From a virus (Duplodnaviria; Caudoviricetes), in the IMG/VR virus record IMGVR_UViG_3300031134_000001, positions 96,001 to 160,000 of that record: a stretch of 64,000 nucleotides of DNA; one strand, written 5' to 3'. The notes beneath the pieces are model-generated. The model had not been told where the DNA came from, did not search any database, and saw nothing but the letters and a program-made list of their open reading frames with translations. Every line of letters begins with the position of its first letter. Position 1 is the first letter of the stretch. Made by a program: the position numbers and the translations under genes. This document shows positions 4,460 through 60,402 of the stretch, one piece after another.

Positions 4460-4469
4460 CTATATCACT
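4460..4469 (+). promoter_or_regulatory. Candidate early (virion-RNAP) promoter CTATATCACT
   Basis: Lies in the AT-rich gap upstream of the nvRNAP beta-C gene. An identical 10-mer occurs at 59787-59796. One mismatch from the phiKZ early consensus TATATTAC. Confidence 0.55.
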
Positions 4470-45815: not shown

Positions 45816-47570
45816 ATGGCAACCAATCGCGTTATTGTCAAGGAAAGCGACAACGGCGGCATCTTCCCTCTGCGTGGGGATATGGATGTGCTGGTCAATT
45901 TCCGACCGACTGAAAGCTTTGGCATTCGTTTTGTGACGTATACCGATGCTGACTTCGTCATCAACTTCCAGGTGTGCAAAATCCGCCTGCCTGACCAGAC
46001 GCTGGCTGACTCGATGAGTGTCGGCGGTAAAGCATCGCTCTTCGTCGAACTCAAGTTCAACGCCAAATACGACACGTGGGACATCGTCGGCCACAACCTG
46101 TTCGCAGCAACTGCCGGTTCTGGCGGTGGTGGCGGTAGCGGTGGTACTGTTGGCGGTGGTGGTGCACCAGACGTCACCACTGGTAATCGTCCAGAAGTGC
46201 TGCTGCTGCCTGACGCTAACGGTGTGTTGACACCAGACGGCAGCATCTCGAACCGTTTCCGTTTCCAGATGACACGCAACATCACGCTGGCCAATCCGGT
46301 GAACTTCTTCAACAACGAACACATCTACCTGACCGGCTACCAAGACGAAGGCGGTGGTAAGAAGATTTCGTTTGGTCGTGCACTGATGCTGCCAGGCCAG
46401 ATGCCGTTCGTACCACCGCTGAACCCGAATGCGGCTTTCTTGATGGAACTGCGTCCAACGCAACACATCAAGACCGGCGCACTGAACTGGGCACTCTGGG
46501 GCTATCCAGACAAAGCCATGGCCAACGGTCTGGGCTTGGTGACAGAGCTGACCATGTTCGGCGACAAGAAATACTACACCATGGCGCAAACGTTCGCAGA
46601 CGCCAAAGGTGGCGGCACAATCAAGATCCTGCGTAACGGCCTGTCGGCTGAAGTCACGGCAACGTTGGAATGCCAAGCAGGCAACACCTACACCGTGGCT
46701 GGTATGCCGATCATCACCAACTCCGAAGACAAGCGTCCGACGCTGGAACTGTTGGGTGTGGACTTTGGTAGTGGCGGTGCGAATCGTCCGGCCTGGGGTA
46801 AAGCGCTGCTGAACTTCGAAGGCTCGGGCAAAGTTTACGTACGTGACCTGATCATCCAAGGCACGCGCGCTGAAGACGGCTCCGGTCGTGGTATCTGCCC
46901 GAACGGCACTGTAGAGATCCACGTGAATAACGTGCGCCTCTACAACAACAACAACGGCATGATGTGGGGTCATATGGCCTCGACCATCTACGTTACCGAT
47001 TCTCAGTTCGACTTTAACGGTATCGGTACCGAAGGTCGTGAAGACGGTTACACGCACAACCTGTACGCTGGTCACAGCGATGGTGTGGTTGCTTTGCGCT
47101 GCTCGTTCACCCGCTCGCAAAAGGGTCACGACTTCAAGAGCCGCGCTGCCTACAGCGAACTCAAGCAATGCTTCCTGAGCGGCGCCAACGAAGGTCGTGA
47201 ACTGGAACTGCCAAACGGTGGTCGTCTGCTGGCTGAACACTGCGTCTTCGAGAAGGTCGGCGGTAAAGATGGTCAGAACGACTTGTGCGTGTTTGGTCAA
47301 GAAGGTATTGAGAAGGATCGTCCGCGTGAGTACATCATGCGCAACTGCCGCTTCATCAACCAACGCGGCGCTGGTACGACTTCGACCTTCGTGCACAACA
47401 TGGACGCGGAAGTTCCTTGCCGGATCATCGATCCTGAGTTCGTCGGCGACTGGACTCTGGCGCGCCCTGACAAAGGCTTGATCAACTGCATCGTGGAATA
47501 CACGGGCGGTCCGCTCGGCCCACAACTGCCAGTTGGTCACCCATTCGTCGAGATGACCCCACCGGTTTAA
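45816..47570 (+). CDS. Tailspike-like protein with a right-handed beta-helix (pectin-lyase-like) C-terminal domain
   Basis: Periodic beta-helix-like segments (VYVRDLIIQG, IHVNNVRLYNNNNG, IYVTDSQFDFNG) and GYTHNLYAG...GHDFKSRA. Confidence 0.7.
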   Translation: MATNRVIVKESDNGGIFPLRGDMDVLVNFRPTESFGIRFVTYTDADFVINFQVCKIRLPDQTLADSMSVGGKASLFVELKFNAKYDTWDIVGHNLFAATAGSGGGGGSGGTVGGGGAPDVTTGNRPEVLLLPDANGVLTPDGSISNRFRFQMTRNITLANPVNFFNNEHIYLTGYQDEGGGKKISFGRALMLPGQMPFVPPLNPNAAFLMELRPTQHIKTGALNWALWGYPDKAMANGLGLVTELTMFGDKKYYTMAQTFADAKGGGTIKILRNGLSAEVTATLECQAGNTYTVAGMPIITNSEDKRPTLELLGVDFGSGGANRPAWGKALLNFEGSGKVYVRDLIIQGTRAEDGSGRGICPNGTVEIHVNNVRLYNNNNGMMWGHMASTIYVTDSQFDFNGIGTEGREDGYTHNLYAGHSDGVVALRCSFTRSQKGHDFKSRAAYSELKQCFLSGANEGRELELPNGGRLLAEHCVFEKVGGKDGQNDLCVFGQEGIEKDRPREYIMRNCRFINQRGAGTTSTFVHNMDAEVPCRIIDPEFVGDWTLARPDKGLINCIVEYTGGPLGPQLPVGHPFVEMTPPV

Positions 47571-47621
47571 TCCCAACATACACCGATGCCGGTTATCCGG
47601 CATCGCTTACGTGGAGTAATT

Positions 47622-49019
47622 ATGGCACTGAATAATCTGCAAATTACCACTGAACACAATCGTGCGCAGATCGATTTGCATGGCGACATGGACGTAACGT
47701 TGGGCGTGGGTTTGCCTGCATCGTTCAACGTCCTTTTCTTTACAACCACCAGTGAGAAGTTCGCGATCAAAACGATCGAAACCATCATCGGTCTGGATGG
47801 TAAAGCTACCCAGCTGTTGAACTTTGGCGGTTCGCCCGGCCTGTCCATCAAGCTGGCTTACAACGCCACTGATAAGAAGTGGATGGTGGTTGACAACAAC
47901 ATCATGCGTAGCAGCGGTGTGAGTGAACACCTGATCGGCGAATACGAGTGGGAAAAGGAAGCGCTCCCAACCATTCGTGTGGCGGCCATCCCAGGTAGCG
48001 TCACCGCCGCTGGCAACGTGACGATCACGGCAACGGTCTCATCGCCTTATACGGTGGACTATGTCGAGTTCTACCGTAACGATGTCAAGGTCGCTACTGA
48101 CCGCGCAGCGCCGTACTCGTTCGTTGATCCGGTCACGATCGCCAACAACGGTAGTATTTCGTATCACGCTAAGCTGTTCGATACGCGCAACAACATCATT
48201 TCCAGCGAACCCGTAACGGTGGTGGTTAATATCGCTCCGCCTGTGGTGGAACCTGAACCAACACCAGATTCGACGCCACCGTCGGTCAACATGTCGGTCG
48301 ATACAACCAGCTTCACAGCACCTGGCATCTTAACGTTGACGGCGCAAGCCAACGACGATGTGGGCGTAACCAAAGTTGAGTTCCTGCGCAATGGCGTGGT
48401 GTTCGCGGTCAAGACGGTTGCACCTTACAGCACCACGCAAGGCATCACCGATGCGGACAACGGCACGATTGTCTACGCCGCGCGCGCACACGACTCGCGT
48501 AACTCGACGACGACGCCTTCGGTAAATGTGAGTGTGCAGATTTCCAAGCCATCGGAAGTCACGCAGTTAACCGTCGACACAAGTATCACCAGTTCCACGG
48601 AAGGTTCTATCGCCATCGCTGACAGCGGTACGAGCGCAACCGGTAAACGACTGGCTGCGGCGCAGGCGATCATCGATCAGATGTCGCCATCGCACACGCT
48701 GAACATCTACCGTGATGGTTTGACCATCTTCAGCGCCAAGTTCGCCGGACCCATGACCATCTACAACGATGGCAAGGATATCGGCGTTGGACTGAACGAT
48801 GTGGTCTCGGGCGTAGCTACTCGCTCGGCGGACATCAACACCGGTAAGTGGGCGTTCCAGCTGGTGGGTGGTGCTTCGGGTCAGCGTTTGATTGCAGGTA
48901 CCGTGGGTCCAACCGGATCGGGCGCTGACATCATTCTGCAAGACTCGCCGTTCCAAGGCCAGCAGTTCGACGCTATCGTCATCTTCATCCTCGATCGTTC
49001 GATCGACGGTTTGTCTTAA
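47622..49019 (+). CDS. Tail-associated protein with two bacterial Ig-like domains
   Basis: ATG at 47622 after GGAG. VEFYRNDVKVATDRAAPYS and DDVGVTKVEFLRNG..APYS are Ig-like repeats. Confidence 0.75.
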   Translation: MALNNLQITTEHNRAQIDLHGDMDVTLGVGLPASFNVLFFTTTSEKFAIKTIETIIGLDGKATQLLNFGGSPGLSIKLAYNATDKKWMVVDNNIMRSSGVSEHLIGEYEWEKEALPTIRVAAIPGSVTAAGNVTITATVSSPYTVDYVEFYRNDVKVATDRAAPYSFVDPVTIANNGSISYHAKLFDTRNNIISSEPVTVVVNIAPPVVEPEPTPDSTPPSVNMSVDTTSFTAPGILTLTAQANDDVGVTKVEFLRNGVVFAVKTVAPYSTTQGITDADNGTIVYAARAHDSRNSTTTPSVNVSVQISKPSEVTQLTVDTSITSSTEGSIAIADSGTSATGKRLAAAQAIIDQMSPSHTLNIYRDGLTIFSAKFAGPMTIYNDGKDIGVGLNDVVSGVATRSADINTGKWAFQLVGGASGQRLIAGTVGPTGSGADIILQDSPFQGQQFDAIVIFILDRSIDGLS

Positions 49020-49034
49020 TTTTCGAGGTATTTC

Positions 49035-51650
49035 ATGCTTACATGTGATCGTGTGTTAGCCAATGCAGTGCGTAAGCTCGGCGATAAACAAAGCCAAATG
49101 AGCTACATCGCCAATGCATTGGGTCCTAACCGTGTGGTACGAGCGTGGCACGACGCCAGCGGTACTGCGAAGTACCCAGCATTAACCGGCACCGAAATCA
49201 TCAGCCTGCAAATGGATGGTAATTTGAGTCTGGCCGGCGGCTCCATCACGGGCTTGGGCTTTACCAACAAAGTCAACAAGTTCCTGCCGAACATCAACCT
49301 GGCTACTGGCCAGGCAGTCATGCGTATCGAAGGTAACGGCCACTATATCCAAGGTACACTGGGTCTGCTTGGCAACTTCGACTTCTCGCTGTCGGCCAAC
49401 CCAGATCCACTGCGCGGCCTGGCGTTCTCCAATGCATCGCGCATGAACGCGCCGGTGTTTGTGCCGTCGGGTACCGGCCCTAAAGCCCCCGATAAAGTGC
49501 GCACATCGCCGCACCGCATCAAACTGTACGACTGGAGCGATCCACGTTCGCCAGTGCTGGTCAAATCGATTCCCTTCGACAACCGTCAACCTGACTGGGT
49601 GTACGAAGATGCTGAGATGGCCCGCAGTACAGGTGACGCGGCTGTGTGGCAGACCGAGAATGCGTTCTGGGATAACTTCAGTCTGGGCGCTACGCTCGTG
49701 ATTGCGGACCCAAGCTGCACCGAAGTCGGCAACGTTCCGCTGTACCAGATCATGGTCGGCTGGAAGTACGAAGCGTCGTGGAGCACCTACCCACGCAGCA
49801 ACACGCAGATGCGCGAAACCGTGGTGATGAACCCACCACCGTACAAGATCGTGGTTGAAGACCAGAACGGCACTACGATGTACGTCTGGGAAATGCACGA
49901 TGGTTCGCCAATCAACGACTTCCGTCTGTATTCGGGTAACAGTCACCGTGGTGGTCGCTCCGCTACCGCAGCGCTGCAACCGCAGTTCAACACGATGATG
50001 ATGCTGTTCTGGCAGAACACCCGCCCGCGCCGCACCGACTTCATCGAGAAGCTGTACCCTGGTTCGCTGAACTTCCGCCAGACGATGTCCAAGAGCTACC
50101 TGAGTATGATCAGCGTTGAACCGCTGCTCACCGGTGGCTACGGCGGTAACTCGGCCAACGGCCTGGCACACATGTACTACTCGACCAAATGGCCGAACGT
50201 GTATGGTCCACAACCGATTACCGACCCGTACATCAGCGCTGGTGCCAACAACGTGTACAGTGCGCTGTACAACGCGTGGGCGCAGGGTTACGGCTACGAG
50301 CCCGGTGCATTTGGTAACCACAACTGGTATACCTCGCCAGGTGGTCCACGCGGTGACCGCTGCGTCATCCCAACGTTCCTGGCCATGTACCTGACGGACC
50401 CAAGTGGTTACCGTCTGCAAGGCAATGTGCCGCACCGTGAGCTGGTTGATGAATGGTTCAAGAACTCCTGGAACCACAGTAACCACCACCTGACGAACGC
50501 GGCCACTTTGGCCACGATCCCGCTCGATGAAGTCATTGGCGATGAATGGGTGCTGGACGCAGCGTACTACGGCGTCTACCCACGTGACAAATCGATCCTG
50601 ATGTGCGGCGACCAACGTGAAGGTACGTCCCAGCGTCACTACGACCTCGAAGGTAACATGTACATCTCGGGTTGGGCCCGCGATCCACTGCACGACTACC
50701 ACAGCCGTGGTTGGGCGTCGATGGCGTTTTGCAGCCCAGCGCATGGTATCGGTAGTAAGTTCGATACCTTGACCTCGATGATGTTGCACCAGAACCCGTA
50801 CAAAGATCCGACCGATTATTACATGGTGCGGACAATGGCATGGCACTGGATGCACCTCGTGATCGCATGGAAGAATGCTAGTCAGCATCCGACCCTGGGT
50901 ATCCCACGCATCAAGATCGAGAACCACTTCGCCAAGATGCTCGAAGCGTACTACAACACATTCTACAAGCGTGTGTTCATCGACATGGACCAAGACCCAA
51001 CCGCAGTCATCATGCGTAATCTGGGTATCAGCGTTGACTGGTCGAATGGTCGTTGGGGTGACAAAGGCGGTCGTCTGGGCTTCTACATGGCTCACGTGCT
51101 CCAGCTGATGAAACAGACCGGTATGTGGCACGCCATGATTCGTCGTGGTACAGTGTATGAGACCGTCCTGAAAAATCTCATCGAGAACATGGACCGGTAC
51201 TGCTTCGGCATGATCACCGACGGTCGCGGCGCTGCAACTGGCTACCAAGCTATCGGCGGCAACAACTACGACGTCTCCACCATCCCTAGCGACTGGGCTG
51301 ACTGGTACGAACGCAACAAGAACGAGCCTTGGGCTGGTGACTTCGTGCACCGCGCTGAATGGCTCAACGGTCAGAACCGCTATGGCCCAATCGAGTACAA
51401 CCCGAATGAAGACGTCGGTAACTCGAACATGGTGTCCTACGCCCGTATCCGCCGTGACTACTTCCCTGAGATCCCACATCCGAAGCTGCAAGCGGCTAAC
51501 GATGAGTTCGATCGCTACGAAGCCATTGTCGCAGCGAAGGTGGCAGCGGAACCGGTCGATCGTAACAAGTACGATCTCGACTACAAGTACCGTTGCCAAG
51601 GCTTGTCGCCGTTCAAGGGACCGAAACCAGGCAATCTCGTTTTAGCGTAA
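49035..51650 (+). CDS. Large hypothetical tail-cluster protein, aromatic-rich, possibly carbohydrate-active
   Basis: 871 aa, SD GAGG, W/Y/H-rich C-terminal two-thirds. No motif confidently recognised. Confidence 0.6.
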   Translation: MLTCDRVLANAVRKLGDKQSQMSYIANALGPNRVVRAWHDASGTAKYPALTGTEIISLQMDGNLSLAGGSITGLGFTNKVNKFLPNINLATGQAVMRIEGNGHYIQGTLGLLGNFDFSLSANPDPLRGLAFSNASRMNAPVFVPSGTGPKAPDKVRTSPHRIKLYDWSDPRSPVLVKSIPFDNRQPDWVYEDAEMARSTGDAAVWQTENAFWDNFSLGATLVIADPSCTEVGNVPLYQIMVGWKYEASWSTYPRSNTQMRETVVMNPPPYKIVVEDQNGTTMYVWEMHDGSPINDFRLYSGNSHRGGRSATAALQPQFNTMMMLFWQNTRPRRTDFIEKLYPGSLNFRQTMSKSYLSMISVEPLLTGGYGGNSANGLAHMYYSTKWPNVYGPQPITDPYISAGANNVYSALYNAWAQGYGYEPGAFGNHNWYTSPGGPRGDRCVIPTFLAMYLTDPSGYRLQGNVPHRELVDEWFKNSWNHSNHHLTNAATLATIPLDEVIGDEWVLDAAYYGVYPRDKSILMCGDQREGTSQRHYDLEGNMYISGWARDPLHDYHSRGWASMAFCSPAHGIGSKFDTLTSMMLHQNPYKDPTDYYMVRTMAWHWMHLVIAWKNASQHPTLGIPRIKIENHFAKMLEAYYNTFYKRVFIDMDQDPTAVIMRNLGISVDWSNGRWGDKGGRLGFYMAHVLQLMKQTGMWHAMIRRGTVYETVLKNLIENMDRYCFGMITDGRGAATGYQAIGGNNYDVSTIPSDWADWYERNKNEPWAGDFVHRAEWLNGQNRYGPIEYNPNEDVGNSNMVSYARIRRDYFPEIPHPKLQAANDEFDRYEAIVAAKVAAEPVDRNKYDLDYKYRCQGLSPFKGPKPGNLVLA

Positions 51651-51657
51651 CAACACT

Positions 51658-51687
51658 AGCAGGTGGGCTTCGGCTCGCCTGCTTTTT
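51658..51687 (+). terminator. Intrinsic terminator
   Basis: AGCAGGTGGGC-TTCG-GCTCGCCTGCT plus a T-run. Confidence 0.8.
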
Positions 51688-51711
51688 CTCTGTAATTAAA
51701 AAGAGGTCAAA

Positions 51712-54700
51712 ATGGCTGTTTACACTACCCCTATGGGTAATCAGGTTCGCTTAAAGCTCAAAGGCTCGATCGTCGAGAGCGGTAGTGAGCCGAACTGGAG
51801 CTATAGCGGCGCAGCTGCTGGTGTTCCAAACACACAGCGTACCGGTATTTTCCCAGGCATTATCCCTGCCAACCAAAATGGCTCGATCGCCATCAAGGTC
51901 ACAACGCCGGGTGAAATCTCCCTGGCACTGCACAAGAGCACCACGCAACCGGCTGACGGTACGGACTTCGACTTCCGTTCGACGATTCGTTCGTCGACGC
52001 AAACGTATCAGCCAGTCAAACCCGGTCAAGCTACCGACACCCCTGAACTGCCGAAGGTCGACGACATCATGCAGATGCGTCGCCAAGACACCACCATCGT
52101 CGCTGAACTCTCGCGTGATAATGGCGCCACGTGGATCACGTTGGTAACCTGGACCGGCGTGCCGTTCACCCAAGAACTGACCGGTATGCTGTTCCTGGGT
52201 GTGGGTACCGTCATCGGTGGCCTTTACAGCAAAGGTCTGCGTCTGGGCGCCGCCTTCGATACGTTCGAAGGTCTGGCTGCTGGTACGTCGCTCACCAACC
52301 GGCTGTGGAAGAGTGGTGACTTTAGCTGGCCAACCGATGCTCTGGTGCGTCTGAAAGCCAACGGCGCCGGTTACGTGACACGTGACCTGACGCTGAACGA
52401 CACTCGCACCGTGGCGCGCCTGACCATGCGTGAAGGCGACCTCGGTTTGGCAGTGGCATTCAAGCACACCAACACTGACGAAACCTTAACTCCGATCTTG
52501 CGTATCGGTTGCGATAGCTCAGGCGCTGCCGGTATGCAGGTCAAGCTCGTGGGTGGTCGAATGCTGGCCTTGGAGCAGGGTTATGGACTCGACGGCGGTA
52601 GCAATTCAGTACCTGCCGTCCTCATGCTCGACCAGGAATACCTGTTCGAAGCATCGCTCTCGGACGATGCCAGCGGCAAAGTGTACAACTTCCGCCTGAT
52701 GCGCGCTCCTGGCGGCGCCCGTACCAGTCTGGTAGCACAAGGTACGGTTACCGCAAAATACGTACACACCGGTGGTCGCATGGCGATCGAAGCTTCGACA
52801 CAGTCCAATGAAATGGACCCAATCCAGCGTGTGGAAGCACTCACGACGCCTGTGGCGATCATCGACCAAGGTGGTTCGGCTTTCCCAGTAGATGATGGCG
52901 TTGTCATTACCTCGCTCATCGGTAAAGGCGCCGACTGCCACTTCGCTGAAATCGCTGACTGGTGGAATTGGGTGCCTGAAAGTCTGGTGGCCCAAAGGCG
53001 TAGTCACGTCGGTCTGCTCGACAAGACTGCAGTGTTCGCTTATCCCACCCTGAACATGTCCGGCAAGACGACCAGCCCTGAGTTCAGCCTGTTGCTGCGC
53101 CCACGTCCAGGTCATGCTTGGTACGAGCACCCAGACTTCCTGACGGGTCCACTGCGCTACAACCCAGAGCGTGGTGTGGCAATCGAACTGAGCTACCAGT
53201 ACAACGATCTGCTTACAGTGGGTTGCGAAAACTTCGCGGTTGAGAGTTGCCAGATCAAGAGCAAAGACCAAGCATGGTCGGGTGGCTGCTTGGTGCGCGT
53301 TGCGGCGTATAACAGCCCACTGCGCATGAACTTTATCGACACCGGCGTTATCGCTGGCCGCTGGAGTGTTGGTGTCAAGACCATGGGTGATGGCCACTAC
53401 GGCAACATCGTTTGGATTCCAGGTTCGCCCGAATTCGCGGTGCACCACGACACCCAAGGCGGTTTCTGGGAAAACAACACGATCGTCGGCGCTTCGGATG
53501 GCGGAGCAGCTACCGATACCATCGCGCTTACCAGCTCACGCGGCACTCATCGTAACAACGCTTTCTTCGGCTTCGCAGAGAACTTCCGCTCTTACTACGG
53601 TACGGCAGTGGACTTCCTTAACTGCGCTACCGACAAAGCAGAAAACATGGCGTTTGCTGTGTCGACCGGTAAGAAAGAAAACAATCTGTATGGTCTGGCC
53701 GCAACTGACCAGTTCATGAACACCACCAAGCTCGGTTGCGACTTGCGCGTGAAGGAAGGTTCGGCATTCTACAACGCTGGCGCAACGCCAAGTTCGTGGA
53801 ACACCCGCTCCATCAACGGCGCTCGTGTCAAGCAAGGTGTGGTTGACATCGGTGCATGGGAAGCGCCGCGGCGTCTGCCAAGCAAAATCGTGATCAGCGG
53901 TAAAGCCACCAACACCACCGGTTACACCACCCCGATCCGCGTCACCCTCAACCAAGTGCTGGTCGGTGATGAAACACAAACCGTCAAGATGTCCGATGGC
54001 GCGCAAGGTGTGTTTACGCCAGCAACGTTCATCCTGTCGGCGGCTCAACCATTCCAAGACGTGGTGTACGCTTCGGCTGGTGATCTGGGCGCTCGCACGA
54101 TCACGGCCATGGACCACATGGGCACTTACGACATTGCTGACGGCACGTTCGCCATGCAAGTCATCGCGCCTTCGCCAGCGACCAAGCTCGTGGTGGAAAA
54201 CGTGGTAGCAGGTAAAGTGGGCGAAGCGGTAACGTTCACCCTCTCGACTGACAACCCACTGTTTAGCGATCACTCGATCGTCTACACGCTGTCCTCGGAC
54301 GGCCCTGGTGTGTTTGCGGAAAAGACCGGCACCCTGAACAAAGGTAACCTCAACGACGTCATCTCGTTCATGCCGCTCGATTCGGGTGACTACAACATCA
54401 CCATTTCGCCTAACGGCAATCTGGCGATGGCAACGATGGTGGTGAAAGTAACTGTAGCGGCGCTGCCTCCGACCTATGGTCCGGGCGAGAACCGTTACTA
54501 CGTGGGTCCGGGTCGTCAGTTCCTGACCATGGATGCATGTATTGCTTACATCAACAATCGCGATCTGGTGACGGACAAAGCCTCGATCTTCGTCCATGTG
54601 GCTGGCAACATTTCGGTCAAGGGCCAAATCTCGCTGACACAAGACTCGACATATTTCGTCACCATCTTGCCATCGGGTAGTAAAGGTTATCGCACCAAAG

Positions 54701-57651
54701 CTACCATGGGTAAATTCCATTACCCGGACGATGGTGCCGAGATGACGTTTGCGGGCGGTGACTTCAAAGTGCCACCAGGCACGGTCGTGAAAGAAATGCG
54801 TCTGAAGTTTAGTGACGGCTCGCGCCTGAACTTTACTGGCCTGCGCACGGGTTCGGTGATGAGTTACTTGCGAGACAATCGCATTTTCGTTGAGCGTCTG
54901 GGAACGGATTGGGTGATTGGTTGCGGCGAGTTCGCCTCCAGTTTGGAAATCTTCAACAACGTGTTTGTTGCTACCCGCCCTGGTGTAGTGGCTGGTCTGG
55001 GTGACGGCTACGGCGCGATCTACGGTAACACCTTTGTTGGTCTGGGTGCTGCTGTGGGTGACGTTACGTTGGCGTTTGGTTACTACGGTAATCCAGGCGG
55101 TCAACAAGTTATCCAGAACAACGTGTTCTTGGATTGCGGTGGCTGGCCAATGAACTTTGCCAACACGGCGCCAAACCGCTACAATCCGGACTTCTTCACC
55201 AACAACTACACCAACACACCGCTGTCGGGCGCAAAAGACTTGGTGCTGCCAATCGGTATGTTGGCACACACCACGAGTGCTCTGGTCGTGGACAAAGCGC
55301 TGGATCTGCGTCCTGCTGAAAACAGCATGCTGCTGGGTAAGGCAACGGCGATCGCGATTTCGAAGAACGATGGTGCGGGTAACAACCGCGGCTTCCAACC
55401 AGACATCGGCGCATTCCAGCGCACACCAGCTACTACACTGCCGATCGTGACAGCAACCAAGCAAGACCTCCAAGGTCAGATGTTGAAGTTGGGTGTGTCG
55501 TTGGTCAACACGGTCGACACGCTGAATGTCATCGTCGAAGCTGATGGTAGCGGCGGCGCAAGCCGTGGTCCGCTGCCAGTGACGTTTACCGCCACAGACG
55601 CTGCAATCGACATCAGCAGCTTGACGCCAGGTAAGTACAAGGCGCCAGTCTTCACAGCAGCTAACGCGGGTGGTTCGGGCAAGTCGACGGGCTTCCTGCC
55701 ATTTACCATCGACCCAATCGTGGTCAATGCAACACTGGCTGACTTTATCGGCGTGACCGATACGGTGCTCGCGCAAGGTCGTCCTAAGTTGCCGTTCCGT
55801 GGTACGACGAACGGTTCGGTGGTTGATCTGTTGCCACCGACTGTGAAGCTCTCCGCAAACCAGACCAACTTCATCGAACAAGGTTTCGTCGAACTGACGG
55901 CTGAAGTGGGCGATGACGTGGGTGTAACCAAGGTTGAGTTCTACAAGAACGATATCCTGGCCATGGTGCGTGAGGCTGCGCCTTGGACTTACTCGCTGTT
56001 GATGTCAGCTACCTCGACCAAAACATCGGTCTGGAAAGCCAAGGCGTTTGACCTGTCCGGCAAGTCCACTACCAGCGATGCGGTCAATGTGTATTCCAAC
56101 ATCCCATCGCCTGATCTGGTTGCGCCAACGGTGGTGAGCATTGTCGCCAACGACAAGCACAACCTGACGATCGAATTCTCGCGCGCTATGAACACGGCGC
56201 CTGACTACGACTTCGCAGGTTCCGGCAGTTACGCGCTGGGTGACCACATGGTGATGTCTTCGCGCTGGCTCGATGGTAGCAATACCAAACTGAGCATGGG
56301 TCTGGACGGTCACTGGACGATGGCTGCTGGTGAAGTGTTGTCGTTCTCGTACATCCAAAACAAGATCCGCGGCTGGCGTAGCGCTGATGGCGTGTTGGTC
56401 GGTTCGTTGCACGACATCCCGGTTACCAACAACATCCCAGTGGAACTGAAGGAGCCGCTGCACCATGCTGTTAGCAACATCGGCGCTAACCTGCCGATCG
56501 CGTCGACGCCATGGACTCGCGGTAGCGCGAGCTGGGAACCAAACACCAAGCTGGTCGGTAAAACCGGTGGTGGTGTGGTGCCAGGTGCAGGTAACCCAGT
56601 GATCGCTGGTATCGCCCGTAGCGGTGAGTTCTTCAACGATGGTTACTTCTACCAACGTGGTCTGGCGGTCTTCTTCAAGATGAACGCGGCAACTGATTCG
56701 GCGTACGGTCTCATCCTGCGTTCGGACAACAGTGAGACAGCGTTTGGTAAAGGTCTGCGCGTTTGGGTAACCAACGACGGCGTGGTGCATTTCAACCACG
56801 TACCTGAAAGCAGCATCACCCCAACGGTGTTGCCGGATATCCCAACGTCGGCGCTGGTAGCTGGTCAAGAGTACTGCCTGGAAATTCAGCAGTTTCTCAT
56901 CAGTGGCTTCTCGGTGTACGAGTACCGTCTGTCTGCAAGCGCTAACCGCGTACGTGGTGCGACGCTGGCGAGTGTGCGGTTCCATACCACGGAATCGAGC
57001 AACTCGCCGTACATGAAAGTCTACGCGGTCAATCCATCGGCCACGCCAGCGACCATCACGCACTTCGAAGGTCCAACTGGCTTCTTCGGCGCACCAGAAG
57101 TCTGGCCAGCCATGACTCTGCCAAACAAGGCACGTTTGTCGAAACTGTCAAACATTGTCGAGAGCGGCTCGGCGCCGGATTACGTCTACACCGGTAAAGG
57201 TGCGATGCTGGCCGACACCCCAGGTGGCGTGTTCGATCTGATGTTCAGTAATCGCGCATGGGCCTCCAACGGTATCCAAGCGACGCTGGGTGATCAGATC
57301 AACGACATCCATCTGGCAGTTTGCATGAGCAAGACGGCAAACGTCGTTGGTGAGTTGTTACCAGTGAAGAACACGCTGATGGCCATTCGTGCATCGGCGG
57401 TGGGTAAGAAGTACGAAGTGTTGGTCAACAACAAACTGCGTGCTGCCCAGAAACAGGTAACCATCGCTGCTGGTGACATGATCCGTATCCGCTGCGTAGC
57501 AACGGCGATCTTCGCTGAAGTCATGAAGAACGGCGTGTGGATCAAGCTCGGCTACATCCGTAGCGCTACCAATCCTGACGGCAGTAACTCGATGATGTAC
57601 AGTCAGTTGCTGCTGCCAGGTAACTCGACGGTCTCGGGTTTGAAATACTAA
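51712..57651 (+). CDS. Giant multidomain receptor-binding/adhesin-like protein (lectin-like, two beta-helices, Ig-like domains)
   Basis: 1979 aa. Two beta-helix units end in DIGAWE and DIGAFQ; Ig-like DDVGVTKVEF; homologous terminal domains (IVESGSxPxxxYxG). Confidence 0.75.
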   Translation: MAVYTTPMGNQVRLKLKGSIVESGSEPNWSYSGAAAGVPNTQRTGIFPGIIPANQNGSIAIKVTTPGEISLALHKSTTQPADGTDFDFRSTIRSSTQTYQPVKPGQATDTPELPKVDDIMQMRRQDTTIVAELSRDNGATWITLVTWTGVPFTQELTGMLFLGVGTVIGGLYSKGLRLGAAFDTFEGLAAGTSLTNRLWKSGDFSWPTDALVRLKANGAGYVTRDLTLNDTRTVARLTMREGDLGLAVAFKHTNTDETLTPILRIGCDSSGAAGMQVKLVGGRMLALEQGYGLDGGSNSVPAVLMLDQEYLFEASLSDDASGKVYNFRLMRAPGGARTSLVAQGTVTAKYVHTGGRMAIEASTQSNEMDPIQRVEALTTPVAIIDQGGSAFPVDDGVVITSLIGKGADCHFAEIADWWNWVPESLVAQRRSHVGLLDKTAVFAYPTLNMSGKTTSPEFSLLLRPRPGHAWYEHPDFLTGPLRYNPERGVAIELSYQYNDLLTVGCENFAVESCQIKSKDQAWSGGCLVRVAAYNSPLRMNFIDTGVIAGRWSVGVKTMGDGHYGNIVWIPGSPEFAVHHDTQGGFWENNTIVGASDGGAATDTIALTSSRGTHRNNAFFGFAENFRSYYGTAVDFLNCATDKAENMAFAVSTGKKENNLYGLAATDQFMNTTKLGCDLRVKEGSAFYNAGATPSSWNTRSINGARVKQGVVDIGAWEAPRRLPSKIVISGKATNTTGYTTPIRVTLNQVLVGDETQTVKMSDGAQGVFTPATFILSAAQPFQDVVYASAGDLGARTITAMDHMGTYDIADGTFAMQVIAPSPATKLVVENVVAGKVGEAVTFTLSTDNPLFSDHSIVYTLSSDGPGVFAEKTGTLNKGNLNDVISFMPLDSGDYNITISPNGNLAMATMVVKVTVAALPPTYGPGENRYYVGPGRQFLTMDACIAYINNRDLVTDKASIFVHVAGNISVKGQISLTQDSTYFVTILPSGSKGYRTKATMGKFHYPDDGAEMTFAGGDFKVPPGTVVKEMRLKFSDGSRLNFTGLRTGSVMSYLRDNRIFVERLGTDWVIGCGEFASSLEIFNNVFVATRPGVVAGLGDGYGAIYGNTFVGLGAAVGDVTLAFGYYGNPGGQQVIQNNVFLDCGGWPMNFANTAPNRYNPDFFTNNYTNTPLSGAKDLVLPIGMLAHTTSALVVDKALDLRPAENSMLLGKATAIAISKNDGAGNNRGFQPDIGAFQRTPATTLPIVTATKQDLQGQMLKLGVSLVNTVDTLNVIVEADGSGGASRGPLPVTFTATDAAIDISSLTPGKYKAPVFTAANAGGSGKSTGFLPFTIDPIVVNATLADFIGVTDTVLAQGRPKLPFRGTTNGSVVDLLPPTVKLSANQTNFIEQGFVELTAEVGDDVGVTKVEFYKNDILAMVREAAPWTYSLLMSATSTKTSVWKAKAFDLSGKSTTSDAVNVYSNIPSPDLVAPTVVSIVANDKHNLTIEFSRAMNTAPDYDFAGSGSYALGDHMVMSSRWLDGSNTKLSMGLDGHWTMAAGEVLSFSYIQNKIRGWRSADGVLVGSLHDIPVTNNIPVELKEPLHHAVSNIGANLPIASTPWTRGSASWEPNTKLVGKTGGGVVPGAGNPVIAGIARSGEFFNDGYFYQRGLAVFFKMNAATDSAYGLILRSDNSETAFGKGLRVWVTNDGVVHFNHVPESSITPTVLPDIPTSALVAGQEYCLEIQQFLISGFSVYEYRLSASANRVRGATLASVRFHTTESSNSPYMKVYAVNPSATPATITHFEGPTGFFGAPEVWPAMTLPNKARLSKLSNIVESGSAPDYVYTGKGAMLADTPGGVFDLMFSNRAWASNGIQATLGDQINDIHLAVCMSKTANVVGELLPVKNTLMAIRASAVGKKYEVLVNNKLRAAQKQVTIAAGDMIRIRCVATAIFAEVMKNGVWIKLGYIRSATNPDGSNSMMYSQLLLPGNSTVSGLKY

Positions 57652-57682: not shown

Positions 57683-57728
57683 CATAGACTCCCTCCCGGC
57701 CTTGCGGCTGGGAGGGGGCTTATGCCGT
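57681..57728 (+). terminator. Hairpin followed by TATGCCGT, ending the tail cluster
   Basis: CTCCCTCCCGGCC...GGCTGGGAGGGGG stem; no U-tract; CATA on the left flank. Confidence 0.65.
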
Positions 57729-57823
57729 CATGTGGTACTAGAATATTTCACGTCCATATTACACAGGTAGATAGAACAACCAATGTTCTACGACATGTCT
57801 AAACTCTTCCTGAAAGGAACATC

Positions 57824-58927
57824 ATGCTCGACCGTACCGTTAGTAACCGCATTGCGATGCTGCGCCCACTTTTGATCATCGCCATGGTGTTCTCTCACAT
57901 GCAGAGTACATCGATCAACATGTCGGACATCGATCCTGGCTTTTTCAATCACGTCGGCGCATTCTTCATCCACGGCATTGCGCGTGGTACGGTGCCTACC
58001 ATGTCAATGATTGCTGGCTTCCTACTCTTTAGCATGAGCCTTGATTTACAGTTTACCAAGATGGTCAAGAAAAAGATGACTACACTGGTCATTCCTTTCA
58101 TCGCTTTCAATCTCGCCTACGTCGCCTATGTGGTCGTATGCGACATTGTGTTCAAAGAAAACCGTCTAGGCGACTTGGCTACTTTGGCAGCAAGCATCGG
58201 TTGGTTTGATGTCTTGTTTGGTTTTGGTCAATACCCAGTTAACGCACCGTTGTACTTTGTGCGTGACCTGATTGTCTTTAGCCTGATGGCCCCGCTTTTG
58301 GGCGGCATCATGCGTACTCTCCCAGTCTTGGGTCTGGCTGGCTTGATCGTGATCTTCGGTTTCAATCACGACGGCAATCTGGTGTTTCGTAGTTCCAGCC
58401 TCATCCTGTTCTATATCGGCGGGATGGCAGCAGTCTACAAATGGGACCTCCTGGCAATGGACAAGTATGCTAAACCATGCGCTGTGATTTTCCTGCTCTT
58501 GTGCCTGGCGTTGATGGCGTTTAAGATGGCCGACAACACGATCCTCGTGATGGCTGCGCCCTTCTTGATCTGGCCAGCAGCATCGCTCTTGAGCAAAACC
58601 CGTATCGAAGCCTGGGGTCTGAAACATGCTAAGTACAGCTTCTTCATCTTTGCGGCGCACATGCCGTTGATGGAACTGACCTGGCTGGCTGTGACGGGTC
58701 CACTCAAGTTTGTGCCATACATCGTTTACTGGGCTATCACCCCGTTTGCAGTGTCGGCATTCTTGATGGTCGTCTACAACGTGAGCATGCGTGTTGCGCC
58801 TACGGCGTTTAACATCATGGTCGGCGCACGTCCTGCGAAACCGAAGTATGCAGATCGTCGCAAAACCGCGCGTCCTGTCAACGCTCCTGTCTACTCGGCA
58901 GAAGAGCGCATGACACTCGCGCATTAA
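57824..58927 (+). CDS. Membrane acyltransferase, Acyl_transf_3 family, ExoH-like
   Basis: Many hydrophobic helices. SNRIAMLRPLLIIAMVFSH, VPTMSMIAGFLLF, LVIPFIAFNL, PVNAPLYFVRDL and SFFIFAAH follow the ExoH/OafA pattern. Confidence 0.8.
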   Translation: MLDRTVSNRIAMLRPLLIIAMVFSHMQSTSINMSDIDPGFFNHVGAFFIHGIARGTVPTMSMIAGFLLFSMSLDLQFTKMVKKKMTTLVIPFIAFNLAYVAYVVVCDIVFKENRLGDLATLAASIGWFDVLFGFGQYPVNAPLYFVRDLIVFSLMAPLLGGIMRTLPVLGLAGLIVIFGFNHDGNLVFRSSSLILFYIGGMAAVYKWDLLAMDKYAKPCAVIFLLLCLALMAFKMADNTILVMAAPFLIWPAASLLSKTRIEAWGLKHAKYSFFIFAAHMPLMELTWLAVTGPLKFVPYIVYWAITPFAVSAFLMVVYNVSMRVAPTAFNIMVGARPAKPKYADRRKTARPVNAPVYSAEERMTLAH

Positions 58928-58966
58928 TTAATCCATCCTTATAACCAACAACATAAAGGAACTATC

Positions 58967-59569
58967 ATGAGCAGTATTACTTACAGTGTCAACAACGAAC
59001 TTTACGCCGCCCAACACTTGATTCTCGGATGGACGATCTGGGCTGACGGCGGGCGTCCATGTCCGGTGAGTCATTTGTATTCCCACTACGAACTTTACGG
59101 CATCAAGCAAATGCGTGATTTGTTTTCTGGACCGACTTATCCACAAGGCCTGCGTGATGCGTTCGATGCAGTAATCGCATTGGCCGAAGCCAAGGAGCGG
59201 CGAGCGGCGAGCGAACTGGCAGATCGCTACGAGGCGGCTGAAGCCTGTGCTGAAGCCATGGTCGACAAGCAGATTCGAGAACTGCGTGACCAACTCAAAA
59301 CTTGTCAAGAGCTTAACCAGCAGGCTCTGACGCAAATTGCGATCATGTGGGTTAGCGCTCGAATGGCAGAAACTACGTCCGTACCTGAGATTCAGCGCCT
59401 GATCCGTCTGAAGTCATTTATCATGGACCGGGTGTTTCAGTTTAGCTGGCGTGATTATGGATTGCATGGCAAGTTTCTTGCAAGCACAGATTGCCGTGTT
59501 TGTGTGAAAAAGCCAGCCACAGAAGAACTCGCGGAATTGATTCTTGGGATCATCCCGTTTGAGCGGTAA
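58967..59569 (+). CDS. Hypothetical protein with central coiled coil
   Basis: 200 aa, SD AAAGGA. Confidence 0.65.
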   Translation: MSSITYSVNNELYAAQHLILGWTIWADGGRPCPVSHLYSHYELYGIKQMRDLFSGPTYPQGLRDAFDAVIALAEAKERRAASELADRYEAAEACAEAMVDKQIRELRDQLKTCQELNQQALTQIAIMWVSARMAETTSVPEIQRLIRLKSFIMDRVFQFSWRDYGLHGKFLASTDCRVCVKKPATEELAELILGIIPFER

Positions 59570-59572
59570 TAC

Positions 59573-59601
59573 AAGAGAGACCTTCGGGTCTCTTTTTTTT
59601 T
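59573..59601 (+). terminator. Intrinsic terminator
   Basis: AGAGACC-TTCG-GGTCTCT plus a long T-run. Confidence 0.85.
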
Positions 59602-59631
59602 GTTTGTTTCTGTGAGAGTAAGTAAGGAGTG

Positions 59632-59656
59632 AGCTATTAGCTTAAAGCTAATAGCT
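59632..59656. promoter_or_regulatory. Perfect 12+1+12 inverted repeat
   Basis: AGCTATTAGCTT-A-AAGCTAATAGCT in a ~260-nt non-coding gap. Confidence 0.4.
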
Positions 59657-59786
59657 AGGTATAGAGGTGAAAGTTGCCTAGGGGATGGAGGGTTGTGGAG
59701 GGGGTAGCAAGCGATTAACCACCTGCCTTGTGGGCAAGTAGGAGTTAATTTGGCTCAACTGTTAATGGTTCTAAATAGAAATAAAC

Positions 59787-59796
59787 CTATATCACT
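59787..59796 (+). promoter_or_regulatory. Candidate early promoter CTATATCACT
   Basis: Identical to 4460-4469; AT-rich context upstream of the small-gene cluster. Confidence 0.55.
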
Positions 59797-59831
59797 TCTG
59801 TGTATTCTTTAATGGAATGAAAGGAATCTAA

Positions 59832-60221
59832 ATGATGACAAAAACTAACGGTGGAGTATGGGTTCCTCCCAGCTCGTTGTTCAAACTACCTCCTGAATTA
59901 CGAGCTCGCGCAGAAGCCCTTCTTGCTAAGCCAATGGATGCGACGGCTTACGCAGAGTCAGAAGCTTTGGGTATCGATCTTCAGAATTTCTTTCATCCTC
60001 ATGTTCCATATCTCGGTCAGATGGAAAGCGATGATGGGTTGTTGATGGATCGCATCGTCGCTGCGCGTGACAAGTATGTGGCCGATGCAGATAATCAAAA
60101 GCTGTATTTCGAGAAGCTTCAAGCGGGTATGGCCATGGCTCTCGAAGCTGCCCATTTCTTGGGAGGTCATTTACAGATTTCCTATCAACCCAAGAAAAAC
60201 GTGGAACCCAAGGAGCCGTGA
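59832..60221 (+). CDS. Hypothetical early-type protein
   Basis: 129 aa, SD AAAGGA. Confidence 0.7.
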   Translation: MMTKTNGGVWVPPSSLFKLPPELRARAEALLAKPMDATAYAESEALGIDLQNFFHPHVPYLGQMESDDGLLMDRIVAARDKYVADADNQKLYFEKLQAGMAMALEAAHFLGGHLQISYQPKKNVEPKEP

Positions 60222-60222
60222 C

Positions 60223-60402
60223 GTGGCCACCATTGAAACTCAGAAGTATGCGGATCTTGATCGATTGAGGTCCCAACTCAATGGTACAGTAGCGGCCATT
60301 GATCACCGTGAAGTTGATCTGGAACTGCTGAACTCGGCAATCAAATTGTCAGAGAAACTTACCAGCCTGTTGCAAGGTATCAAAACCGAGATCACTCAAT
60401 GA
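60223..60402 (+). CDS. Small helical hypothetical protein (59 aa)
   Basis: GTG at 60223 with AGGAG at 60211; C-terminal part of track ORF 60067-60402. Confidence 0.55.
   Translation: MATIETQKYADLDRLRSQLNGTVAAIDHREVDLELLNSAIKLSEKLTSLLQGIKTEITQ

Follow-up and report, generated by a model that had tools for sequence, protein, structure and literature searches.

Masking of a phage receptor by acylation of surface glycans is textbook knowledge for temperate phages; in lytic phages, to our knowledge, receptor masking is known mainly with protein receptors, as in the case of T5 Llp. The locus described here raises the question of what use a presumably lytic jumbo phage could make of a membrane acyltransferase of the AT3 type, encoded directly behind its tail-fibre genes. 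The preliminary description of this locus had proposed that the phage acylates the very glycan that its own spikes recognise, and that spikes and acyltransferase may travel together as a matched lock-and-key cassette. The DNA analysed, i.e. a stretch of 64,000 nucleotides (hereafter the window), corresponds to bases 96001-160000 of a complete virus genome of 271,026 bp with direct terminal repeats, which originates from a phyllosphere metagenome.

The window phage and its acyltransferase

The window phage encodes split beta subunits of a multisubunit RNA polymerase (phrog_3295 and phrog_3015), a PhuZ tubulin and a 673-aa homologue of chimallin, the nuclear shell protein gp54 of phiKZ (E 5.5e-13). 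PhuZ was found by its match to phiKZ gp39 (PDB 3zbp, E 2.5e-24, phmmer against the PDB), and gave no match to the Pfam tubulin profile. A second chimallin-like ORF had no match in the PDB and no paralogue detectable by BLAST. The tyrosine integrase profile (PF00589) did not match anywhere in the complete genome of the phage. As PhuZ and the chimallin homologue are present and no tyrosine integrase was found, it is reasonable to regard the window phage, on the basis of its gene content, as phiKZ-like, nucleus-forming and presumably lytic, in agreement with what had been assumed in the preliminary description.

A protein database search returned many homologues of the acyltransferase and showed that the named genomes carrying relatives belong almost exclusively to Massilia, the others being those of Herbaspirillum, Janthinobacterium and Variovorax. 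Given this predominance of Massilia, and the phyllosphere origin of the sample, the phage probably infects Massilia or one of its relatives within the Oxalobacteraceae.

The acyltransferase gene (57824..58927, + strand) starts with ATG, has no internal stop codon and is preceded, five bases 5' of the start codon, by the ribosome-binding site AAGGAA (57814-57819, + strand). Its product, an AT3-only membrane acyltransferase of 367 aa (the window copy is hereafter called allele A), matches the Pfam profile Acyl_transf_3 (PF01757; E 3.2e-22, 79.5 bits with a cut-off of 31), residues 12-309 being aligned with profile positions 6-313 of 326. The earlier identification of an intact Acyl_transf_3 membrane protein was therefore correct, and no other PF01757 match was obtained across the 271,026 bp of the genome. 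No NCBIfam model and no PHROG (matches up to E 10 included) corresponded to the protein. A collection of 50,697 phage records, searched at the DNA level and by tblastn, gave no match, and scans of IMG/VR with the acyltransferase, the 871-aa tail-module protein (see below) and a 180-aa protein returned no relatives.

Helix 1 of AT3 proteins is defined by an R-X10-H motif, which corresponds to Arg14/His25 of OafB (PMC9833829). In an alignment of 75 homologues both R14 and H25 of the window protein are invariant, with exactly 10 residues between them, and 16 more residues are invariant, including K84, R147, D213 and H279. [quoted passage not shown]

An AlphaFold2 model based on the 75-homologue alignment is all-helical over 367 aa (pLDDT 93.3, pTM 0.87). 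The all-helical model, together with the top reviewed fold matches, all of which are stand-alone AT3 proteins, displays the AT3-only architecture of about 10 transmembrane helices with no fused SGNH domain. The best of the reviewed (Swiss-Prot) fold matches is ExoH of S. meliloti (TM 0.78, residues 2-358, 25% identity, E 9.6e-13), followed by the far weaker YcfT, YfiQ, OpgC and IcaC; in a tblastn search, ExoH encoded on pSymB was 27.5% identical to the window protein. The designation ExoH-like, used in the preliminary description, is appropriate at the family level but does not extend to orthology, in view of this identity and of a different locus context. Among solved structures (Foldseek against the PDB) the only resemblance, and a weak one, was to HGSNAT (TM 0.44), which fits the TmAT superfamily, of which HGSNAT is a member (PMC12423673). 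A sequence profile search of the PDB with the acyltransferase gave no match, and a fold search of BFVD gave one marginal match.

Upstream tail genes and expression signals

Four large + strand ORFs are located 5' of the acyltransferase gene (45816-57651). A block of tail genes directly upstream had been described before, but its extent is 11.8 kb and not ~13 kb. The block begins with a 584-aa putative tail or adhesin protein (45816..47570, + strand), whose match to Pfam Beta_helix is sub-threshold (E 3.7e-5, 23.8 bits with a cut-off of 25.9). It is followed by a 477-aa Ig-domain protein of the tail module (47586..49019, + strand) with a Big_7 domain (E 4.6e-18) and a weak Hoc-like PHROG match, homologues of which are present in the modules of the relatives L030 and L046 (see below). 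The third ORF encodes an 871-aa tail-module protein assigned to no family (49035..51650, + strand), with homologues in the relatives, and the last gene of the structural block encodes a 1979-aa putative tail fibre or spike (51712..57651, + strand) with Big_7 at residues 1378-1436.

As to the beta-helix and Ig content claimed for these genes, the Ig part was confirmed by Big_7 in the 477-aa and 1979-aa proteins, whereas the beta-helix part comes down to the single sub-threshold match and to language-model leads. For the 1979-aa fibre, beta-helix or pectin-lyase-like leads were obtained from language-model features only; relaxed Pfam scans of the fibre proteins yielded Big_7 and the one sub-threshold Beta_helix match, nothing further, and a scan of metagenome contigs with the fibre returned unrelated Big_7 matches only. 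As the predicted fold of the variable fibre domain (residues 420-880, three sequences) had a pLDDT of 33, the idea of a depolymerase is treated as a lead. Considering the Ig domains, the sub-threshold beta-helix match and the language-model leads, we regard the upstream proteins as putative glycan-binding or glycan-cutting fibres.

The fibre gene is closed by a terminator-type element (57683..57728, + strand; -32.8 kcal/mol, z -5.1), composed of a GC-rich hairpin (57683-57724) and the following TATGCCGT. The proposed terminator between the fibre and acyltransferase genes thus finds its counterpart in a strong hairpin belonging to a genome-wide hairpin-TATGCCGT class, but this hairpin has no T-run. 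TATGCCGT is present in 27 copies in the genome, on both strands and nearly always directly 3' of a GC-rich hairpin, and the hairpin-TATGCCGT element is kept upstream of all four acyltransferase alleles described below. A late promoter of the phiKZ type (T-3ATG+1) was considered for TATGCCGT but rejected as the main reading, because the motif is itself part of an extended hairpin, in which it makes up the 3' arm and the 5' arm ends with GCATA, and because it is also found between convergent genes, on both strands.

Analysis of k-mer enrichment in the intergenic regions revealed a promoter family of roughly 40 nt, GGnnCTAnAnnnTTTnAnGnC-TATATCAC-T. There are 13 perfect TATATCAC cores, all on the + strand, and 11 of them fall into the gaps of a crude gene prediction, in most cases at a distance of 35-90 nt from the start codon that follows. 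The strongest site is located 89 nt upstream of the chimallin homologue, and another site precedes an RNAP beta gene (window position 4461). There is a close similarity between this family and the early consensus published for 201phi2-1 and phiKZ, TATATTAC (PMC7058600), and motifs of that kind are the early promoters of these phages recognised by the virion RNAP (PMC7598289). An early class fits the family, since its sites precede the genes of the chimallin homologue and of an RNAP beta subunit.

An early-type (virion RNAP-type) promoter-like element is also present before the acyltransferase gene (57725..57774, + strand); its core, CATATTAC, occupies 57755-57762 and is separated from the start codon by 61 nt. 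The bare CATATTAC 8-mer, the early-like sequence of the preliminary description, was rejected as evidence, as it is no more frequent than expected by chance (2 copies versus about 3.4 expected per strand). The surrounding 50 nt, on the other hand, are a weak member of the promoter family. With a matrix (PWM) built from 12 TATATCAC sites of the window phage this stretch scores 22.7 bits, against 28-47 for canonical sites; only 16 of 541,954 positions score as high or higher, and the maximum scores in five block-shuffled genomes were 11.8-20.8. In the relatives, the element at the same position scores 22.7 bits in L002 and 18.4 in L029 (allele B) and 32.3 in L030 (allele D), while before allele C (L004) it is degenerate (7.2 bits). 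Owing to the 22.7-bit match, and to the occurrence of the same element before alleles B and D, early expression of the acyltransferase in infection appears likely.

Downstream of the acyltransferase gene lies a variable accessory gene, a 200-aa ORF with no Pfam or PHROG match (58967..59569, + strand), which is probably co-transcribed with it. The unit ends with a canonical intrinsic terminator (59573..59606, + strand) consisting of a 10-bp stem and a T-run, 100% conserved in L002, and the next gene (59832-60221) is preceded by a perfect TATATCAC early-type promoter core (59788..59795, + strand; 37.8 bits).

Exchange of alleles and fibre modules

The relatives recovered comprise L002/L003, L004, L029, L030 and L032, which represent the lineage of the window phage, and one distant phage, L046. 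The latter is a phage contig of 43% GC, for which no similarity to the window genome was detected beyond a homologous tail module (proteins of 913 and 1061 aa); its acyltransferase gene is convergent on the last tail gene. In every relative recovered, i.e. in five lineage contigs and the distant phage, an AT3 gene adjoins the last tail-fibre gene, and the co-occurrence with the tail cluster, named earlier as a way to check the proposal, was therefore observed throughout. The window gene begins 172 nt after the last fibre gene and the position is the same in five relatives. Four alleles occupy this slot: A in the window phage, B in L002/L003, L029 and L032 (68% identical to A), C in L004 (62%) and D in L030 (35%). 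An uninterrupted ORF was seen in each of the seven phage contigs. A copy of allele A (approximately 96%) was also encountered in a wastewater run.

Comparison of the window with L002 showed that the DNA is about 100% identical up to position 57750, including the hairpin and the promoter-like element, and that identity then drops to about 68% exactly over the acyltransferase ORF, with sharp recombination boundaries. Relative to L002/L003, the window carries an extra 645 bp (58927->59573) with the 200-aa ORF, after which identity is again 100%. The L002-type joint with allele B recurs in independent straw-metagenome contigs. The 200-aa ORF, absent from L002/L003, is 80% identical in L030, and L029/L032 have a version of 132 aa (41% identical); between 57760 and 60400 small variable genes form a mosaic, the recombination boundaries of which are sharp. 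As the dS value for alleles A and B is 1.6, compared with 0.19 for the neighbouring fibre gene, the difference between them reflects replacement by a long-separated allele and not fast drift. Swaps as sharp as this one, in phages that hardly differ elsewhere, suggest that an arms race is proceeding rapidly here.

The dN/dS ratio is 0.15 for alleles A and B compared with each other and 0.16 for a pair of phage-borne allele B copies, which differ by 16 synonymous and 9 non-synonymous changes; this indicates that the acyltransferase is under purifying selection in phages. The gene is predicted to encode an intact, constrained and functional AT3-only acyltransferase of the inner membrane.

The tail module varies as well. 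Starting at the 3' end of the acyltransferase gene and continuing downstream, the DNA of L030 is 87-96% identical to the window, and its fibre set (892 and 1042 aa) differs from that of the window phage. Over its full length the 871-aa protein shows 99.6-100% identity to its counterparts in L002/L029 and 76% in L004, 27% to the 892-aa protein of L030 and 25% to the 913-aa protein of L046, whereas the 1979-aa fibre is 95.6% identical in L029 and 60% in L004. For the larger-module protein, the fibre and the acyltransferase, respectively, pairwise identities were as follows: L030 and L046 – 50, 43 and 50%; L030 and the window – 27, 23 and 35%; the window and L004 – 76, 60 and 62%; the window and L029 – 99.6, 95.6 and 68%. 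As these values co-vary, fibre type and acyltransferase clade travel together (module types I and II), and their co-exchange supports the idea of a cassette. The pairing is not strict, since the window and L029 combine fibres that are 95.6% identical with acyltransferases that are 68% identical. The lock-and-key proposal is thus sustained for the exchange between module types, but not as a strict rule, for which the same values, found with L002/L029, leave no room. The sole divergent patch between the L029 and window fibres (residues 420-840, 75-92% identity) could, in this single case, be the change that matches the A/B swap of the acyltransferase.

The bacterial relatives closest to allele A (57-58% identical) come from Massilia aurea and matching metagenome contigs. 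The M. aurea-type genes reside in a Wzx/Wzy-type polysaccharide locus with genes for GT2, GT4, Wzy_C, a flippase, LMWPc/kinase and UDP-glucose dehydrogenase. Together with alleles A, B and C they form a fully supported clade of seven, while allele D belongs to a separate deep clade, which also contains metagenome sequences and the L046 acyltransferase and whose sister group consists of genes from Herbaspirillum and Massilia sp. TN1-12. A single clade for the four phage alleles was rejected by the AU test (lnL difference 192, p 6.8e-5), therefore the slot must have been filled at least twice.

The distant Massilia homologues have a host-like GC3 of 85-89%. The M. aurea-type genes have a GC content of 49-50% and a GC3 of 58-63%, within loci of 61-70% GC, and for the phage alleles these values are 50-51% and 60-67%. 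Judging from these data, the acyltransferase family is at home in the Oxalobacteraceae, but the sub-clade shared with phages is compositionally foreign in the bacterium. The phylogenetic comparison with bacterial homologues, envisaged in the preliminary description, has thus pointed to at least two origins of the phage alleles and to relatives in the Oxalobacteraceae, and the tree is compatible with either direction of transfer: the gene may as readily have passed from phage to host, or have come from a mobile pool shared by both, as have been captured by the phage from a host. As the bacterial copies closest to the phage alleles resemble phage genes in composition, hosts may have recruited a phage gene for resistance.

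Possible roles and known systems

On balance, we lean towards a glycan-based form of 'lytic conversion', in which an AT3 enzyme produced early would acylate a surface glycan and mask the receptor of the cognate fibres. Fibres and acyltransferase are exchanged as a host-range module, in which the acyltransferase allele can also be replaced alone. A polysaccharide is suggested as the target class by the location of the closest bacterial relatives inside a Wzx/Wzy-type locus. The injected virion RNA polymerase would, as the motif suggests, transcribe the gene early from the weak early-type promoter, in a unit that would run from the promoter (57755) through the acyltransferase gene and the 200-aa ORF to the terminator (59573). 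The 10-helix protein would enter the inner membrane and, like other members of the AT3 family, take acyl-CoA (acetyl or succinyl) from the cytoplasm; the acyl group would then pass through the R14/H25 pore to a repeat unit of an exopolysaccharide, capsule or O-antigen on the periplasmic side. By analogy, and considering the gene linkage, the acylated polymer would be neither bound nor cut by the cognate fibres, and infected cells and debris would cease to adsorb sibling or competing phages, as with Sf6 Oac or T5 Llp. What counts against masking is that AT3 enzymes modify newly made polymer only, so old unmodified polymer would persist within one lytic cycle.

It is also conceivable, though unlikely, that the acyltransferase excludes unrelated competitors or host-range variants of the same lineage, thus protecting the long jumbo infection, with no fit to the adjacent fibres. 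The swap of the acyltransferase alone, next to fibres that are 95.6% identical, would fit such an arms race better than a strict lock-and-key, and modification of the host surface against rivals has been proposed for jumbo phages generally (PMC7824862). However, neither the constant place at the end of the fibre module nor the joint change of fibre type and acyltransferase clade, L046 included, would be explained. The linkage and co-exchange with fibres would likewise be left without explanation if the enzyme served to remodel the matrix or envelope apart from adsorption, i.e. to alter EPS properties, periplasmic glucans or peptidoglycan, and in this way stabilised the cell, tuned lysis or aided diffusion of the progeny in biofilm. 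Many acceptors are modified by AT3 enzymes (PMC9558356), enzymes for the succinylation of periplasmic glucans (OpgC) and of PNAG (IcaC) are among the reviewed fold matches, and the habitat is that of phyllosphere and straw biofilm communities; nevertheless, we consider this role decidedly improbable, as the closest bacterial homologues lie in a Wzx/Wzy polysaccharide locus, and not in opg or peptidoglycan loci.

The mosaic nature of 57760-60400, with its sharp recombination boundaries and a 200-aa ORF that comes and goes, would also suit a neutral passenger (moron) that was gained, to no benefit, because a recombination hot-spot follows the fibre genes. Such a passenger, already disfavoured, is highly improbable, considering that none of the seven phage contigs has a broken ORF, that dN/dS is close to 0.15 and the catalytic motif does not vary, that distant alleles came to occupy the slot in independent events, and that the promoter is conserved before the gene.

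If masking of a glycan receptor by acylation, which we favour, is indeed the role of the gene, then an early AT3 that is retained, diversified and exchanged with fibres would join glycan acylation and lytic receptor masking, and the acyltransferase clade would be a sequence-readable marker of the glycan receptor type in uncultured phages. For the use of phages against biofilm or plant-associated bacteria it would matter that such genes could leave survivors or debris insensitive to the phage concerned. A tentative and rather doubtful extension is that nucleus-forming jumbo phages of the Oxalobacteraceae carry exchangeable lock-and-key modules of fibres and early receptor-masking acyltransferases and that, in addition, genes flow from phage to host, in which case M. 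aurea-type EPS loci (where the gene has a GC3 of about 60% and its locus a GC content of 65-70%) would have captured a phage gene as heritable resistance.

Several known systems share features with the one proposed here. Like ExoH (P33692), the succinoglycan O-succinyltransferase of S. meliloti, the window protein is a stand-alone AT3, similar to it in length and in fold (TM 0.78), and many members of the family carry the JGI label 'ExoH'. Unlike ExoH, to which it is 25-28% identical, it has no exo-cluster context and its bacterial relatives are found in another polysaccharide locus, of the Oxalobacteraceae; neither succinyl specificity, nor the acyl donor, nor a succinoglycan acceptor can be inferred for it from sequence. 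Jumbo cyanophages of the P-SSM2 type carry surface-polysaccharide gene clusters, which have been proposed to prevent superinfection; no such surface modification is described for phiKZ-like phages in the same article (PMC7824862). A host-surface-modifying enzyme in a jumbo phage is thus the common feature, but in the T4-like cyanophages this function is assigned to multi-gene sugar-synthesis clusters, which are not fibre-linked and not of the AT3 type.

Acylation of the receptor glycan by Sf6 Oac blocks the endorhamnosidase tailspike of Sf6 itself (PMC9558356). As with Sf6 Oac (OacA) and the AT3 proteins of other serotype-converting phages, an AT3-only membrane acyltransferase is encoded here beside a putative glycan-recognising tail gene. 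Sf6, however, is temperate and Oac acts in lysogens, whereas the window phage is phiKZ-like, has no match to the PF00589 integrase profile and appears to use an early promoter of a lytic type.

The lytic phages T5 and BF23 mask their own receptor by means of Llp, whose gene adjoins the receptor-binding oad/hrs, and the module of receptor binder and blocker differs between close relatives and can recombine internally (PMC4728585). Similarly, the candidate blocker of the window phage adjoins the fibre genes and is exchanged with them, as seen in the type I/II modules and in the A/B swap. Llp is a small lipoprotein acting on a protein receptor (FhuA, BtuB), while the candidate described here would be a polysaccharide-modifying enzyme. 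What is new, in comparison with these systems, is the lytic nucleus-forming setting, the early-type promoter and the exchange of modules.

Accessory genes around the acyltransferase

The 367-aa acyltransferase (window 57824-58927, + strand) is followed by a 200-aa ORF without a family match (58967-59569), whose insertion fills precisely the gap from the acyltransferase stop codon to the terminator downstream of it. Among phage contigs of the same lineage, L002 and L003 lack this ORF, L030 carries a copy that is 80% identical, and L029 and L032 have a 132-aa version (41% identical) in its place. Next to the acyltransferase, the 200-aa ORF is the second rapidly changing accessory gene of their putative shared early unit.

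The small genes next after this unit (59832-60402) are mosaic too. A 129-aa ORF located there is 97% identical in L030, versus 68-72% in L002 and L029, and approximately 190 bp (60208-60401) are absent from L002 and from straw-metagenome contigs. The whole stretch between 57.8 and 60.4 kb of the window is a recombination hot-spot.

In L002, a JGI contig, the gene for the 1979-aa fibre (window 51712-57651, + strand) was called as three ORFs of 441, 749 and 795 aa (L002 1600-7472), separated by two frameshifts. As the near-identical copies in L029 and L032 are unbroken, these frameshifts are probably assembly errors and not genuine breaks.

Acyltransferase genes on other contigs

In Massilia aurea-type loci (L005 10001-11128 of Massilia aurea, as well as L006 and L008), the acyltransferase gene forms a sharp low-GC island, with a GC content of 48-50% and GC3 of 58-63%, within an EPS locus of 61-70% GC. 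Such an island suggests that the bacterium acquired the gene recently, the source being a phage-like gene pool. In two short metagenome contigs of 43-44% GC, L011 (349-2841) and L012, AT3 acyltransferase genes are paired in tandem (376 and 377 aa); the second shares 61% identity with the enzyme of the window and branches as the sister of the Massilia aurea-type genes.

Candidate transcription signals

An early-type promoter family, composed of the core TATATCAC and a conserved upstream portion of about 30 nt, has 13 sites, all on the + strand; among them are window positions 4461 and 59788 and, beyond the window, genome 86477-86484. Its strongest copy lies 89 nt 5' of the chimallin homologue (genome 86573-88594). 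This family could serve to delimit the early regulon of this uncultured phage.

The motif TATGCCGT occurs in 27 copies on both strands of the 271-kb genome, nearly all of them directly preceded by a GC-rich hairpin. One such element lies at window 57683-57728; further sites include 3996, 10534, 22215 and 44630, and 20-odd fall outside the window. In the otherwise unrelated phage contig L046, TATGCCGT is likewise found 5' of the acyltransferase. GCATA ahead of the hairpin often mirrors TATGCCGT behind it, so that the motif becomes the conserved base of a stem that is extended and in many cases bidirectional. The hairpin-linked motif may be a phage-polymerase-specific signal for termination or RNA processing, and it stands where intrinsic terminators usually have a T-run.
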